From Octopus vulgaris (taxonomy: Eukaryota), in contig OX597815.1 in the NCBI GenBank assembly GCA_951406725.2, forward strand, positions 156,612,001-156,676,000: a DNA stretch of 64,000 bases, in the 5' to 3' direction. The number at the start of each line of letters is the position of its first letter. The first letter of the stretch is position 1. The position numbers and the translations under genes are program-made. The notes below the pieces were generated by a model, which had not been told where the DNA came from, ran no database searches, and saw nothing but the letters and a program-made list of their open reading frames with translations. This document shows, piece by piece, positions 3,887-58,224 of this stretch.

Positions 3887-4193
3887 CGTTGTGAGTGTTT
3901 ATTGAGCGAAAACACCTAAAGCTCCACGAGGCTCCGGCAGGGGATGGTGGTGATCCCTGCTGTACTCTTTCACCACAACTTTCTCTCACTCTTACTTCCT
4001 GTTTCTGTTGTACCTGTATTTCAAAGGGCCGGCTTTGTCACTCTCTGTGTCACGCTGAATATCCCCGAGAACTACGCTAAGGGTACACGTGTCTGTGGAG
4101 TGCTCAGCCACTTACACGTTAATTTCACGAGCAGGCTGTTCCGTTGATACGGATCAACCGGAACCCTCGTCGCCGTAATCGACGGAGTGCTTC
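3887..4193 (+). mobile_element. SINE family C, 5'-truncated, with perfect 15-bp TSD
   Basis: Near-identical to the reverse complement of 34007-34390; CATAGTATCCTATGT at 3872-3886 and 4194-4208. Confidence 0.92.
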
Positions 4194-12778: not shown

Positions 12779-14045
12779 ATGATAAACTTAGATAAACTTA
12801 GATATGTTTCGACCAAAGATTGGTCCAGGCCATGTCTAACTTAATAGCACCACCTGATAGGATTATTTGAATCCTGTTGAAGTCAAGTTTTGTTCATGGT
12901 CCATTCAACTAGTGAGTTCTTGTTGGGTGAGATGTATCCAATTATGGGTGACTATCTGGTATTCTTTGAAGGAATCTATCCAGACTCCGTTTAAAGTTGA
13001 TGGGACCCTTATCCTCTTTGATCTCTTTCGGGACATTGTTAAATTGGCCAGGGCCTGTTGAGGAAAAGAAATTATGTTGCAGTGTACATGTATGCTGTGA
13101 TCTTGATTTGGGCAGGGGACGTATGGCCCGTGGTCCCAGTCTTGGATGAACCTTGAAGCTAATGTTCAGGTCGTTTGGGCAAAGTTGGCAGTATATTCTC
13201 CACATCGTACAAATGATATACCGCTCACGGCGACGCTGGAGAGAGTAGAGTTTCAAGGCTTTAAGGCGATCCCAATAATCGAGAGCAGCCATGCCTTCAA
13301 TTTGTTTAGTGAGTGCCCTCTGGGGTAATTCAATCCTCGAGATGTTTTGTTCTCTGGACCGGTAAGTTCTTAAGGTCTAGGAACTCATCCTACGAGATAT
13401 ATCGACCTTCTTGTTGATGTGTGCACTCCAACTGAGATCGTCATCAACAATTACACCGAGGTCTCTGATATATTAGAGGCTGTGAGCGGTTCCCGTGAAG
13501 GAAGAGAGTATGGCTGTTTTAGTGAGGAATTTCTTCCAAAATGCATCAGCTCAAATTTTCCCTTGTTCAGTTGCATTTTGTTTCTGTCTGCCCATTGACT
13601 CACAGCATATAGATCAGACTGGAGTTGAGTTCGGTCTGCTTTTTCATTGACGATTTGCTGGAGCTTAGTGTCATCAGCAAATATTTTTACTTTGCAGTAA
13701 TGTACGACACTGGAAAGGTCGTTTATGTAAATTATGAAGAGTAGCGGACCCAAGACAGTCCCCTGGGGGACACCGCTGGTGACATTTGCTGGGCTTGAAT
13801 GGACTCCATCAACTACAACATGTTGTGTTCTATTCGCCAGGAAATACTTAATCCAGTGTAGAACTTTTCCACGGATTCCGACATTTGCCAATTTTGAGAG
13901 TAGGATATTATGGTCTACCCTGTCGAACGCTTTACTGAAGTCAAGATATATGACATCAGAGTTCGAACCTGTTCCCAAGGCTTTGAGTACAACTTCAATG
14001 TGGTGTAAGAGCTGTGTTAGACAGTCCCTGCCACAGCGAAAGCCA
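12779..14045 (-). pseudogene. CR1/L2-group LINE, 5'-truncated RT and 3' end
   Basis: YLDFSKAFDRVDH, SGVPQGTVLGPLLF, IFADDTKL and LKLYSLQRRRERY; tandem TAAGTTTATC tail; internal deletion near 13370. Confidence 0.92.
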
Positions 14046-14119
14046 TATATGTATATACATGCATGTATGTTTGCATGTGTGCATATATATCTAGCAAGAT
14101 ATATACACACAAGTGTATA

Positions 14120-14167
<48 letters not shown>

Positions 14168-14539
14168 ATGTGTGTGTGTATGTGGGCGCACACACACACA
14201 CATATACACACTCATAATTAACATGACTATATATTCCTAGTGTTCGAAATGGATCATAATGTCATCCTTGTATTGTCCTTTGTACACTTTGATGATTTTC
14301 CATACAAGGTTTTTGAAATCGAAAATTATGTATTTATCTTTTGTTATTTTAATTTTCTTTGTGAAATGAAACAAATTGTAGAAGATTATGTTAACCAATA
14401 AATCAATTAATTTGTATCCATTAGATCTCTCTGTTTTATAATTCGATAGTAATATTTGATATTTTACGATAATATATTAAACCAGTGTGTCTTCGATGAA
14501 AATATGCCTCCAAGAGGATATTTATATCCTCATTACATG

Positions 14540-15652: not shown

Positions 15653-17457
15653 TCTGCATAGCCCTAATACCCCTTACAAGTGAATTAAACAGAACAGGGT
15701 ATGGGTATAAAATTGCCAATAAAAAATAAGCCATCTATTTTATATGGATGACTTAAAACTTTATGGTAAAGACAATAATGAACTTGAAGGCCTATTGCGC
15801 ACCGTGAAAGCACTCAGCGATGACATCGGGATGGAGTTTGGACTTGAGAAGTGTGCCAAGGCCACTTTCCAGAAAGGGAAAGTGAAGACCACAAATTCAG
15901 TCGTGTTAGATGTTGACACAGTCATAAGGGAGCTTGAGCAAGAACAAACATACAAATATTTAGGGATAAATGAAGGCTCTGGTATTCAGCATGCAAGCAT
16001 GAAAGAGAAGATCAGGAAGGAATGTTATAGGAGAGTTTGTGCAGTCCTGAAATCTGAACTAAATGCACGTAACAAGGTGTTAGCTATAAATTACTTAGCA
16101 GTTCCAGTTGTTACTTATAGCTACAATGTGTTGAACTGGAATATGAGTGAAGTAAAGGATATAGATAGGAAAATACGCAAGCTGCTGAGTTGTAATAGGA
16201 TGCACCACCCAAAGGCAGACGTAGATCGCCTTTACCTTCCCAGAGCCCAAGGAGGTCGAGGCCTGATCCAATTTGAACTAGCTTACAAAACAACCACAAT
16301 TGGACTGGCCAAATATCTCGAATTATCGAATGACTGGATGCTAAAGCTCGTGGAAAATCACGAGAGACGAAAGAAGCTTCATTCTATCATAAAGGAAAGC
16401 AAAAAAATTGCTATTGATCTCGTGCAGGATACCCAAACTGAACAACCCGAGGGAAGTACGGCAACTATTGTTGCAAAGAAGGTGAAAATGATGGCAATGA
16501 AAAAAGCGCACGAGCAATTGGCTGATAGGTGGGAGGAGAAACCTCTGCACGGCAAATATGTGACCCGCAGCAAACAAGCTGATGTTGACCAGAAGCAAAC
16601 CCATCAGTGGCTACGGAGCTCAGGGCTAAAAGCAGAGAGCGAAGGTTTCATCCTGGCTGCTCAAGATCAAAGCCTATTAACCCGGAACTACCAGGCCAAT
16701 GTGATGAAAAATGGAGCAGACCCAAAATGCCGATTCTGCAATGACATGATTGAAACAGTGGACCACCTAATCTCTGGATGTAAAGTCTTAGCACCAGTGG
16801 AGCATAAATTAAGACATGACAGAGTTGGCCAATATCTCCACTGGCTAATAAGTCGGCATTACAATATCAAAACTGCCGACAAGTGGTATAATCACCACCC
16901 TGAGGCTGTAACTGAAGGAGAAAATGTAACCATTCTGTGGGACTTTCCAGTACATACAGACCGAACCATCAAGGCCAATAAACCAGATATTGTTGTGAAA
17001 GACCAAAATAATAAAGTTTGCTTATTGATCGACATGAGCATCCCCTGTGATCATAATATCTCAGCGAAAGAGTTTGACAAGCTCAGAAAATATAAAGACC
17101 TACTCATTGAAATTGAGAAAATGTGGCATCTCAAGGCGGTTACAATACCAGTGATCGTAGGAGCACTAGGAATGATCAAGAAGGGAACCGAAAATTATAT
17201 GAGAATGATCCCTGGCTTACCAACCCTGCAAGAAGTGCAAAAGATTGTCTTAACTGGTACATCACACGTATTGAGAAGAGCATTGTCGATGTGAGAACTG
17301 TTGCTGCTCATGTATTTTAATTTAACTTAAAAAAAAAAATGAACGAACTATTGAGTTTGGTTTAATGGACTACCAATGTATACTATGAGTTTCTTTGCCC
17401 TAGGAGTCGGGAAAACACTCGGCAAGAAATGGAAGCAAATTTGAAAGAAGAAAAAAG
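15651..17457 (+). mobile_element. R4/Dong-like non-LTR retrotransposon, 5'-truncated, inserted in (TAA)n
   Basis: Begins mid-RT (FCIALIPL), is flanked by TAA repeats on both sides and has a short 3' UTR. Confidence 0.9.
15744..17294 (+). CDS. Uninterrupted C-terminal ORF of the Dong-like LINE: RT (YMDD), CCHC knuckle, restriction-like endonuclease
   Basis: HLFYMDDLKLY, CRFCNDMIETVDHLISGC, RHD and KPDIV..LIDMSIP..KY. The Met is the internal YMDD Met, so this is not a true start. Confidence 0.88.
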   Translation: MDDLKLYGKDNNELEGLLRTVKALSDDIGMEFGLEKCAKATFQKGKVKTTNSVVLDVDTVIRELEQEQTYKYLGINEGSGIQHASMKEKIRKECYRRVCAVLKSELNARNKVLAINYLAVPVVTYSYNVLNWNMSEVKDIDRKIRKLLSCNRMHHPKADVDRLYLPRAQGGRGLIQFELAYKTTTIGLAKYLELSNDWMLKLVENHERRKKLHSIIKESKKIAIDLVQDTQTEQPEGSTATIVAKKVKMMAMKKAHEQLADRWEEKPLHGKYVTRSKQADVDQKQTHQWLRSSGLKAESEGFILAAQDQSLLTRNYQANVMKNGADPKCRFCNDMIETVDHLISGCKVLAPVEHKLRHDRVGQYLHWLISRHYNIKTADKWYNHHPEAVTEGENVTILWDFPVHTDRTIKANKPDIVVKDQNNKVCLLIDMSIPCDHNISAKEFDKLRKYKDLLIEIEKMWHLKAVTIPVIVGALGMIKKGTENYMRMIPGLPTLQEVQKIVLTGTSHVLRRALSM

Positions 17458-34006: not shown

Positions 34007-34390
34007 TGGAAGCACTCCGTCGGTTACGACGACGACGGTTCCGGCTGATCCGAATCAACGGAACAGCCTGCTCGTGAAATTAACGTGTAAGTGGCTGAGC
34101 ACTCCACAGACACGTGTACCCTTAACGTAGTTCTCGGGGATATTCAGCGTGACACAGAGAGTGACAAGGCCGGCCCTTTGAAATACAGGCACAACAGAAA
34201 CATGAAGGAAGAGTGAGAGAAAGTTGTGGTGAAAGATTACAGCAGGGATCACCACCATCCCCTGCCGGAGCCTCGTGGAGCTTTAGGTGTTTTCGCTCAA
34301 TAAACACTCACAACGCCCGGTCTGGGAATCGAAACCGCGATCCTATGACCGCGAGTCCGTTGCCCTAACCACTGGGCCATTGCGCCTCCA
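34007..34390 (-). mobile_element. SINE family C, full length with tRNA-like head
   Basis: Minus strand TGGAGGCGCAATGGCCCAGTGGTTAGG...GGTTTCGATTCCC (A and B boxes); body matches 3887-4193. Confidence 0.92.
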
Positions 34391-55510: not shown

Positions 55511-56345
55511 CAGGTGGGGAAGTGAAACTTGGAATGTTTTGGAAGTCTTATTTTTCTCATATTACTGAGTGTAAATACTAAAATATTGTTTTCTATTTCA
55601 GGGTGGAGGTATATAGAGTTAATTCAAGCGGAGATTCTAGTTATACAGTCAAGCATGTCCGCTCATGAAACCAAGAGACAACGCATTGCAGATTTACTTT
55701 TTGCCGGGGTTGCAATTAGACGTATTACCGAGACTGTCAGGGCATCTGTGAGCACTGTTTACAAAGTTAAGAAGTGAATGCTGGACATGGGAGGCATCAA
55801 GAGAAAGCCAGGAAGTAGATGACATAAATGAAATCTATAATAATGCATTTCTTACATAATTTAAAGCCAAAATTTCGAAAGACCCAACAGCAGCCATGAG
55901 AAAACTGTTATTATGGACATGAAAGTTGATCGAAAGACCATCAGAACTACTGTACACACTGATTTACAGTTGGGGGTCATACGTGAGAACCCCGAGACAA
56001 CCATTGACCTATGCAATGAAAGGTAAAAGGCATGAACAGGCCAAAAAATGTGTTGCGATATCTGAAGCACAATGGAAAAAAAGATGCCCCTTCATTTTTT
56101 TTCAAGTGTGGGGAAAAGGTGGGGGCTGAAGTTTATTATAAAGTCTTGCAGTTTAAGGTTTTACTTTGGCTGAAGTCTAACTACCTCAACGGTAAATATG
56201 TGTGTACCAAAGATGTTGCTCCTACTTATACGTTGAAGGAATTGTAGAAATTCTGCGAAGACAACTTCACCGACTTTTTGGCCTGCCAACTTTTGGTTTT
56301 CTTCCAGCTCAGACTTGAAACCCCTGGACTAAGCCGTATGGGGAA
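55511..56345 (+). mobile_element. Tc1/mariner superfamily (maT/DD37D-like) transposon remnant
   Basis: TA-CAGGTG start; MSAHETKRQRIADLL..VSTVYKVKK HTH; KVGAEVYYKVL..WLK..DVAPTYT and a SSDLKPLD*AVWG motif. Confidence 0.75.
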
Positions 56346-56346
56346 A

Positions 56347-56400
<54 letters not shown>

Positions 56401-56410
56401 CGTGTGCGTA

Positions 56411-56623
56411 TGGAGGCGCATGGCTCAGTGGTTAGAGCTCCGGCAGTAGGTAATGGTGAACTTCTGCTGACTCTTTCGCCACAACTTTCTCTCACTCTTT
56501 CTTCCTGCATCTTGCAGCTCACCTGCGACGGACCGGCGTACCGTCCAGGTGGCGAACCTTTACGCCAAGGAAACCGGGAAACCGGCCCTTATGAGCAAGG
56601 CATGGCTCGATAAGGAACAAACA

Positions 56624-56625
<2 letters not shown>
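56411..56625 (+). mobile_element. Chimeric SINE: family C-like head and body with V-domain-like tail
   Basis: TGGAGGCGCATGGCTCAGTGGTTAG; CCACAACTTTCTCTCACTCTT shared with family C; then CCTGCGACGGACCGGCGTACCGTCCAGG and (AAAC)n. Confidence 0.7.
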
Positions 56626-56701
<76 letters not shown>

Positions 56702-56937
56702 TATACATAATAGAAATATTAAAATTACTAAGTCTCTCTAAAAGATAAAAAGGCAGCGTTCCCGGAAAATAATAGTTATCGCCATACTAATATGGCATTC
56801 TTATAAAAATAAGAATAAAGCTGTCCGCTTATTAGCTCCATGAGGCCATCGCCTTAAGTTAGCTATTTGATACACAAACTGTATCCATATAACCTTCGAA
56901 CAAGGGAGGTCAGTCGCTCCACACTACTTGACCGACA

Positions 56938-56979
56938 GCTACAGACGCGTTTCGGGGTATTGCCGATTTTCAATGTAGC
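56938..56979 (-). ncRNA. Minimal hammerhead motif, inverted copy with weakened stem II
   Basis: Minus strand GCTACA-TTGAAAA-TCGG caata CCCC-GAAAC-GC-GTC-TGTAGC. Confidence 0.6.
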
Positions 56980-57208
56980 GTAGTCAGACCAGTAGGTGTC
57001 GCTTCCGACAATCTCTATTCGAAGGTTTTATTTACCTAGTATGGCGATAACTATTATTTTCCGGGAACGCTGCCGTGTTCTCTTTTAGAGAGACTTAGTA
57101 ATTTTAATATTTCTATTATTGAAAACAAGTGGATGTATTCCACCGAAACTAGGTAAATAAAACCTTCGAACAGAGATTGTCGGAAGCGACACCTACTGGT
57201 CTGACTAC

Positions 57209-57250
57209 GCTACATTGAAAAGGGGCAATACCCCGAAACGCGTCTGTAGC
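57209..57250 (+). ncRNA. Minimal type I hammerhead ribozyme with U3-A8 core
   Basis: GCTACA-TTGAAAA-GGGG caata CCCC-GAAAC-GC-GTC-TGTAGC; perfect stems I and II and palindromic ACGCGT stem III; predicted cut after C57244. Confidence 0.78.
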
Positions 57251-58224
57251 TGTCGGTCAAGTAGTGTGGAGCGACTGACCTCCTTGTTCGAAGGTTATAT
57301 GGATACAGTTTGTGTATCAAATAGCTAACTTAAGGCGATGGCCTCATGGAGCTAATAAGCGGACAGCTTTATTCTTATTTTTATAAGAATGCCATATTAG
57401 TATGGCGATAACTATTATATATACATATATATATATATATTCGTAGATATATTCATTCAGAAATATAATGAAAGAGAGGTAGGGGAAAATAATAAATAAT
57501 ACACGAATCCAATTAAGATTGCTAATATAAACTGAGTTGGAAAGAAGTATTGTCATGAAGTTTTCGAAACGTACAGATTTTTCCATATTCTTCCTGATGG
57601 AACGTGCAATATGAATTAATATTTCAACTGTGTTGCATTTGAGTTGGGTGAGAAGCATAAAGAAACGAATGGCGAATATATAAAGGTAGACAGCATTGCC
57701 CAATCCACAAACATAATTTAGCATCAAAAGCCCAAATGTATACTCTATCTACTACCATTAACATGTTAACGGCTTCCATACCGACGGTTGTCGAATGAAT
57801 CAACACGGTGACTATGATGGTTTATCAAAGGATTGTTAGTCGGGTACCATCTCTACAAATTTTATGACTATACATTTCATTCCGCTGCATTTCTATACAT
57901 TTATTCATGATATTCATGATCATTAACAGATATCATTATACTGTGTGGCTTTCTCTACATTTAGTTTCCATACAAAAGCCTATAACATATTCATTCTTCG
58001 CGGGGATGGGGTCAGAATATAAGGGAGATATACGCCAAGTCGTCTTTCGAAAGTAAAACCAGTCACTGAAAAGTAAAAATGTATTTGCTTGCCCACATAC
58101 ATATATATATATATATATATATATGTATATGTATATATACATATATATATGTATATGTATATATATACATATATATGTGTATATATATATAGATATAGAT
58201 ATATATATGTATATATATATATAC

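Follow-up and report, generated by a model that had tools for sequence, protein, structure and literature searches.

A 361-nt repeat with a U3-A8 hammerhead-shaped motif and a Penelope-type insertion pattern in Octopus vulgaris

Two head-to-head copies of a 361-nt non-coding unit lie within the window, by which we mean the whole 64,000-nt stretch of Octopus vulgaris contig OX597815.1 that was analyzed here (positions 156,612,001 to 156,676,000). The unit carries a type I hammerhead-shaped motif, HH1, in which both partners of the core 3-8 pair are exchanged, and it is a high-copy animal family. We consider it probable that the unit is a non-autonomous, retrozyme-like passenger, and that a Penelope enzyme copied its tandem or circular RNA into (TA)n. 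No further copy of the unit is present in the 64-kb window, and the genome around is AT-rich and dense in microsatellites.

Alignment bears out the arrangement that a first-pass annotation of this DNA had described, namely a period of 361 nt with an identical 21 nt at both ends of the plus-strand block, and a reverse-complement copy head-to-head upstream of it (Table 1). The direct block opens with the last 83 nt of one unit (57037-57119), continues with 299 nt of the unit that comes after it, and stops 62 nt before the common 3' end of the family. Its length supports the further suggestion of the annotation that an RNA longer than one unit was retroposed. The inverted copy, read from 57040 to 56707, corresponds to unit positions 57148-57418 running straight into 57058-57119, reads through the 21-nt stretch without a break, and ends at the equivalent of 57119, the common 3' end; because only 334 of 361 nt align, it is 27 nt shorter than a full unit. 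Relative to the direct block it shows six substitutions, at the equivalents of 57075, 57077, 57080, 57171, 57222, and 57223, together with an additional C that follows the equivalent of 57281. Both arms carry the minority alleles T57253 and A57212 and therefore come from one subfamily. The outer ends of both blocks run into TA-rich microsatellite, where a 6-nt match between the right tract and the end of the left flank is a candidate target-site duplication that is indistinguishable from the microsatellite.

Table 1. Positions in the window of the insertion, its flanks, and its hammerhead-shaped motifs.
Feature	Position	Strand	Basis or remark
Target tract, left part, (TA)n/(TACATA)n	56628-56706	.	
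Inverted copy, 5'-truncated, 334 of 361 nt	56707-57040	-	alignment and family ends
HH1 of inverted copy	56932-56987	-	helix II broken by two private changes
Direct block, 1.06 units (382 nt = 361 + 21)	57037-57418	+	alignment
4-nt overlap (microhomology) at head-to-head junction	57037-57040	.	shared by both blocks
21-nt duplication, first copy	57037-57057	+	ordinary internal stretch of unit
HH2, degenerate hammerhead-like fold (U3 at 57119)	57114-57159	+	fold prediction
HH1, type I hammerhead-shaped motif	57201-57256	+	fold prediction and family variation
HH1 distal helix, 5 bp	57201-57205/57252-57256	+	
HH1 3-nt bulge	57206-57208	+	
HH1 helix I, 6 bp	57209-57214/57245-57250	+	
HH1 core, U3, A8, G10.1, C11.1	57215, 57220, 57222, 57234	+	
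HH1 helix II, 4 bp, 5-nt loop	57222-57225/57231-57234	+	
HH1 core, G12-A15.1, U16.1, C17	57235-57238, 57243, 57244	+	
HH1 palindromic (self-complementary) helix III, 6 nt	57238-57243	+	
HH1 predicted cut	after 57244	+	
HH1 unpaired U1.7	57251	+	
21-nt duplication, second copy	57398-57418	+	right end of insertion
Target tract, right part, TA-rich	57419-57441	.	

The hammerhead numbering fitted onto HH1 is the one that we take to be conventional. Compared with the core CUGANGA...GAAA...UH, only positions 3 and 8 differ, with U3 and A8 in place of C3 and G8; the resulting heptamer, UUGAAAA, retains the 3-8 pairing, and under a strict consensus-core test for a canonical type I hammerhead HH1 fails at this pair only. 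The annotation had reported perfect stems around this core. This holds for the plus copy, where helices I and II are perfect and pair with a probability of 0.94 or higher in the local ensemble, but not for the inverted copy, in which two changes at the equivalents of 57222-57223 break helix II. Those changes are absent from the family differences at 5% or more, and on the modeled fold the HH1 of the inverted copy is likely inactive. The 25-nt HH1 motif had no match in 100 shuffles of the window. Beyond the core, HH1 has an A-rich loop 2, an unpaired U1.7, and a bulge that presumably resembles that of the Schistosoma motif and is altered by A57207G in 27% of X1 depth. A tertiary contact is described for U1.7 in other hammerheads (PMC11875169), and the helix sizes of HH1 are those given for canonical type I hammerheads in PMC4209133, with 6 bp in helix I, 4 bp in helix II, and 1 to 2 bp plus a palindromic loop of 2 to 4 nt in helix III.

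Helix III has a pair probability of 0 in the monomer, and its palindromic form suggests, as far as the model goes, that HH1 pairs would act as dimers. In axolotl, the form with one base pair closed by a palindromic tetraloop needed dimers (PMC7229834), so dimer action can fairly be expected for HH1. The earlier description as a dimer-acting minimal hammerhead is thus right as to the palindromic helix III but not as to size, the 6- and 4-bp helices being canonical rather than minimal. A good fold does not guarantee activity, however, because eight of nine Xenopus retrozyme dimers are reported as uncleaved in vitro (bioRxiv 10.64898/2026.07.22.740005).

Part of the stretch is contained in 20 of the 24 public sequencing runs listed (12 studies, seven organisms), with no RNA run named as such among those that contain it, although X11 may be one. 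The right flank of the insertion has no coverage in X1 or X11, a gap that carries no weight for or against its presence in other animals. Contigs of four runs from three organisms (X1, X10, X11, and X13) were aligned to 57037-57560 at 80% likeness, with differences recorded from 5% upward; this gave 4103, 545, 33, and 7 contigs, respectively, an aligned depth that is not a copy number. Throughout 57213-57252, which spans the core, helices II and III, and the 3' strand of helix I, none of the four runs has a difference at or above the 5% threshold. The U3-A8 pair is therefore a family state and not a private change, and the expectation that homologues conserve the 3-8 pairing is upheld; with the core invariant, no 3-8 covariation is visible inside the family in these runs. 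At the distal pair 57204-57253, in turn, the two window copies have A-U where most of the family has G-C: T57253C reaches 94% in X1, 95% in X10, and 77% in X11, and A57204G reaches 88% in X10, 96% in X11, and 63% in X13, with just 3.5% in X1 at low aligned depth. From the arithmetic of the difference table, X11 contig 23 carries both changes. A57212G (63 to 100%) yields a fold-keeping G.U pair. T57165A, at 64% in X1, disrupts the predicted pairing to A57292, where no partner change is listed. Judged from these sequence comparisons, an unchanging core together with a compensated pair speaks for selection acting on the fold. A diverged subfamily, about 87% similar, is represented by X10 contig 13 and X11 contig 22 over 57130-57228, from HH2 to HH1.

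As the annotation had foreseen for searches that rely on the consensus, three Rfam scans returned no hammerhead here: the whole window had no match at the gathering score, 56600-57500 had 13 matches at E ≤ 10 (long-hairpin miRNA models and microsatellite), and 57185-57275 had none. The exact HH1 motif was found in no viral contig and no prokaryote genome. A degenerate U3-A8 motif scan gave 1 viral and 17 metagenome loci; none of these 18 forms both helices or is similar to the 361-nt unit, and they are therefore regarded as chance matches.

A weaker second fold had been noted at about 57113-57160. The fold exists (HH2), but with three departures from a working hammerhead. There is an additional base at 2.1, A9 is followed by two bases, and A.C replaces G10.1-C11.1. 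Its helix III is non-palindromic, 27% of X1 depth has G in place of A15.1, and its hammerhead fold reaches -1.5 kcal/mol against -13.2 kcal/mol for the best fold, a penalty of about 12. A relaxed descriptor, written after the fold was seen, matched in 26 of 20,000 shuffles of the unit and at one other place on the two strands of the window. Rfam reported only one chance group I intron piece across 57095-57175. In form HH2 is similar to the minimal hammerhead of Penelope-like elements (PLEs) but for the A.C at 10.1-11.1 and the extra base at 2.1, and it is likely a relic. The recurrent 3' end of the family (57115-57120) coincides with the start of the HH2 core, and the 5' end of the inverted copy (57148-57152) falls in HH2 helix III. 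Cleavage by HH2 was rejected as the source of that 5' end, the copy reaching 4 to 8 nt beyond the predicted cut after 57155. An analogy with Terminons was also set aside: their target-pairing stretch sits downstream of the hammerhead (PMC6431247), whereas the HH2 core begins downstream of the family end.

The unit as a whole resembles the non-LTR retrozymes of metazoans. It is short, low in GC (40%), free of long open reading frames in all six frames, and equipped with one canonical-sized type I hammerhead, and its length agrees with the 150 to 450 bp of metazoan retrozymes and is close to the 350 to 390 bp of those in mussel (PMC7229834; Cervera and de la Peña 2020). Folded as a closed monomer it reaches -119.7 kcal/mol, against -79.6 ± 5.4 kcal/mol in 100 shuffles, none of which was as good (z = -7.4). 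In this circular fold 62% of the bases are paired, helices I and II form, and HH1 is left exposed at one end, the stable, self-paired circle with a free hammerhead being a further retrozyme trait, as are high copy number and copies of more than one unit. Retrozymes, on the other hand, come as at least two consecutive hammerhead-bearing units, and the locus holds only 1.06 units in tandem. It also differs from them in the dispersal of the unit as an inverted plus partial-tandem insertion and in the second, degenerate fold, and U3-A8 as a family state is not described for retrozymes in the text available. Neither the unit nor the six frames of the window provide a Penelope enzyme: the former has no open reading frame for a reverse transcriptase or GIY-YIG endonuclease, and a motif scan of the latter gave no Penelope-like reverse-transcriptase or GIY-YIG motif.

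The anatomy of the insertion, by contrast, is that of PLEs, for which partial tandems, an adjacent inverted and 5'-truncated copy, a tail at one end, and a bias toward microsatellites are described (PMC8557442; Craig et al. 2021). All four features are found at the locus, and the earlier attribution of the inverted 5' segment to a Penelope-type insertion is supported by its position beside a partial tandem and a tail. Further parallels come from a purified Penelope-like protein (PMC11167929; Frangieh et al. 2024). At AT-rich DNA this enzyme nicks both strands and extends each of them; it initiates inside the RNA, at two positions downstream of the hammerhead, and accepts templates that are still uncut. 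The AT-rich target, the extension of both strands, and the two internal starts are thus shared with Penelope/Poseidon. The distances differ: there the tail is 30 to 40 nt and the starts lie about 85 to 92 nt past the hammerhead cut, whereas here the two ends are offset by 62 nt and lie 174 and 236 nt past the predicted cut. Moreover, the 361-nt unit has no enzyme gene.

The ends of other family members place the boundary of the unit. Loose ends were judged from 24 of the 173 in the table, those near 57411-57449 being left out as repeat. At least 39 X1 contigs leave the unit behind 57119 and at least 14 behind 57116, both groups into (AT)n; at least four X11 contigs do so at 57115-57119 and at least one X13 contig at 57120. 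For X10, none of the six loose ends listed is at 57115-57120, and two X10 pieces stop at 57119-57120. Because this recurrent 3' end is also that of the left copy, the natural frame of the unit runs from 57120 round to 57119, and in this frame the inverted copy is a plain 5'-truncated monomer. Contig 4 of X1 and contig 12 of X10 bridge 57119/57120 with at least 31 nt on each side, so that read-through into a next unit is not peculiar to this locus. Three other opposite-strand joints were found in X1, at 57067/57299, 57069/57368, and 57260/57346. The annotation had proposed start points permuted around a circle and had named fixed linear ends as the contrary outcome. The proposal is only partly borne out: the 3' ends cluster at 57115-57120 with (AT)n, and the fixed end in the X1 contigs counted above goes part of the way toward that contrary outcome. 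Priming by TA microhomology was rejected as a sufficient cause of the ends: the TA-like stretches 57300-57305 and 57383-57385 match the TA repeat as well or better, and their absence among the 3' ends listed argues for a defined start site and not microhomology alone. No array with two same-strand HH1 motifs was seen among the contigs; those that bridge the unit boundary are shorter than would be needed to span two hammerheads.

For the origin of the insertion we infer transcription, cleavage, circularization, and the action of a Penelope enzyme. A tandem source elsewhere in the genome would be transcribed, HH1 pairs would cleave as dimers through helix III, and the monomers would perhaps be ligated into circles. 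A Penelope enzyme would then nick both strands of an AT-rich target and begin reverse transcription at internal RNA sites, the equivalents of 57119 (common) and 57418. Both cDNAs would pass 57244/57245 on a template that is ligated or uncut, and their two ends would join through the 4-nt overlap into the head-to-head structure. Because both copies cross 57244/57245, a cut linear monomer is excluded, and the template is, to judge from the two copies, a ligated circle or an uncut tandem. One X11 contig also crosses this site, which is compatible with DNA, uncut RNA, or a circle alike. The present copy is probably a dead end. With one HH1 on each strand, one of them broken, the locus alone would be unable to release a monomer, and transcription through it would give an RNA that folds into a hairpin of 272 bp.

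Within this explanation a stricter version can be set out, in which cleavage and ligation by HH1 yield a covalently closed 361-nt monomer and both arms are cDNA copies of it. We regard it as a tentative possibility. A cDNA of 382 nt made on a unit of 361 nt, the predicted cut site crossed by both arms, and the strong closed fold with its exposed hammerhead all fit a circle, and mussel, coral, and axolotl retrozymes accumulate in circular form (PMC7229834). An uncut tandem transcript would, however, give identical cDNA, and uncut RNA is the dominant template of the Penelope-like protein in vitro (PMC11167929); the ends, among those listed, cluster rather than spread round a circle. The arms also differ at an indel that is polymorphic in the family, the additional C at 57281 being present in 35% of X1 depth. 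This difference leans slightly toward two template units over one circle, although a homopolymer slip after insertion may account for it. A still more specific proposal, that this is an abundant family of retrozyme circles with U3-A8 cores throughout, missed by Rfam and by CUGANGA screens, in which HH1 makes the circle and the PLE-type HH2 fold marks a fixed entry site for the Penelope reverse transcriptase, we consider doubtful. If it were true, the dispersed insertions would directly record how Penelope enzymes copy the retrozyme circles of animals, and counts of retrozymes that rely on the standard core would overlook whole families.

Other readings dispense with a retrozyme-like passenger. 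The unit could be the pseudo-LTR of an autonomous PLE and the locus a heavily truncated insertion of it, as opposite-strand hammerhead pairs 100 to 700 bp apart are described as truncated PLEs in Schistosoma and a U3-A8 family is tied there to Cercyon elements (PMC4209133). In X11, contigs 18 and 19 (680 and 1237 nt) match only 57042-57118, about the last 75 bases of the unit, with other sequence upstream; these may represent either truncated copies within host transcripts or members of a related, possibly autonomous, family that shares the 3' end. We nevertheless think a pseudo-LTR unlikely, given that the direct block re-enters the 361-nt unit after its 3' end with no long open reading frame in six frames, and that HH1 differs from the minimal PLE consensus in its canonical 6- and 4-bp helices and in having nothing inserted after A9. 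Alternatively, the repeat could be SINE-like and mobilized by a LINE, with the hammerhead as a passive fossil. LINE reverse-transcriptase remnants do lie in the window, a recurrent 3' end that passes into simple repeat is in keeping with a SINE, and twin priming, which produces inverted 5' segments, would account for the inversion. Against this, the right end of the insertion lies inside the unit, 62 nt ahead of the common end, the block reads through into a second unit, and the core is invariant beside a compensated pair, all of which makes this reading quite improbable. Foldback duplication and misassembly both readily affect long inverted repeats in microsatellite DNA, and none of the contigs of the four runs spans the locus; even so, we judge either origin very improbable. 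Seven differences and a shift in unit phase separate the arms. The left arm stops at the recurrent 3' end of the family, its 62 nt past the join of 57418 to 57058 are not creatable by simple foldback of the direct block, and other copies invert at other points.

With a retrozyme-like passenger of a Penelope enzyme as the preferred reading, what is known of Penelope elements and retrozymes accounts for most of the finding. The U3-A8 core itself is not new: several scattered natural hammerheads with the identical compensated pair are called active in vitro (PMC3088659; Perreault et al. 2011), and about 1,300 U3-A8 motifs are counted in Schistosoma PLEs (PMC4209133; Cervera and de la Peña 2014). 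Figure S3 of the latter includes, in S. mansoni(4), a UUGAAAA heptamer identical to that of HH1, and the Cercyon family shares with the present locus a palindromic helix III and opposite-strand pairs a few hundred bases apart. Cercyon hammerheads are minimal, however, with a longer helix II, a short helix I, an extra base after A9, and little or no helix III. HH1 has neither the long helix II nor the short helix I, nor an extra base between 9 and 10.1, and it has a distal bulged helix; the Cercyon repeats flank an open reading frame for a reverse transcriptase and endonuclease, which the HH1 unit does not contain. Both the exchanged core pair and the inverted arrangement have published precedents.

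Apparently unpublished is the combination of a canonical-sized type I motif, a fixed U3-A8 pair, a retrozyme-sized non-coding unit, and a PLE-type insertion with a recurrent internal end, which we did not find in the literature on U3-A8 (C3U-G8A) hammerheads or on octopus hammerheads; Lünse et al. 2017, Arkhipova et al. 2017, and supplements may hold cases. By analogy, the unit would work like a retrozyme moved by a PLE and yet be a member of neither family, since the locus has neither two hammerheads in tandem nor an open reading frame. The enzyme that moves animal retrozymes is an open question in the field: a 2020 review describes their repeats as having no motif that names the mobilizing partner (PMC7761336), and the recent proposal that they derive from PLEs (bioRxiv 10.64898/2026.07.22.740005; Li et al. 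2026) argues for such a partner, in the text available, from co-occurrence and trees only. A retrozyme-sized unit with full Penelope insertion anatomy and a recurrent internal start offers a concrete substrate for in vitro Penelope assays. It also illustrates that a high-copy family can fix a U3-A8 core and escape Rfam.

Several other elements are found in the window. A decayed transposase with stops and frameshifts lies at 55655-56350 on the plus strand and is presumably Tc1/mariner-like, going by motifs recognized in its translation. It is followed on the same strand by a tRNA-like SINE with an A-box-like start (56412-56630), whose short simple-repeat tail runs into the target microsatellite and of which partial copies occur at 3931-4001 and 34201-34271. 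Two LINE reverse-transcriptase remnants match Pfam RVT_1, one at 13451-14236 on the minus strand and one at 15723-17294 on the plus strand, the latter of which we take to be R4/Dong-like.
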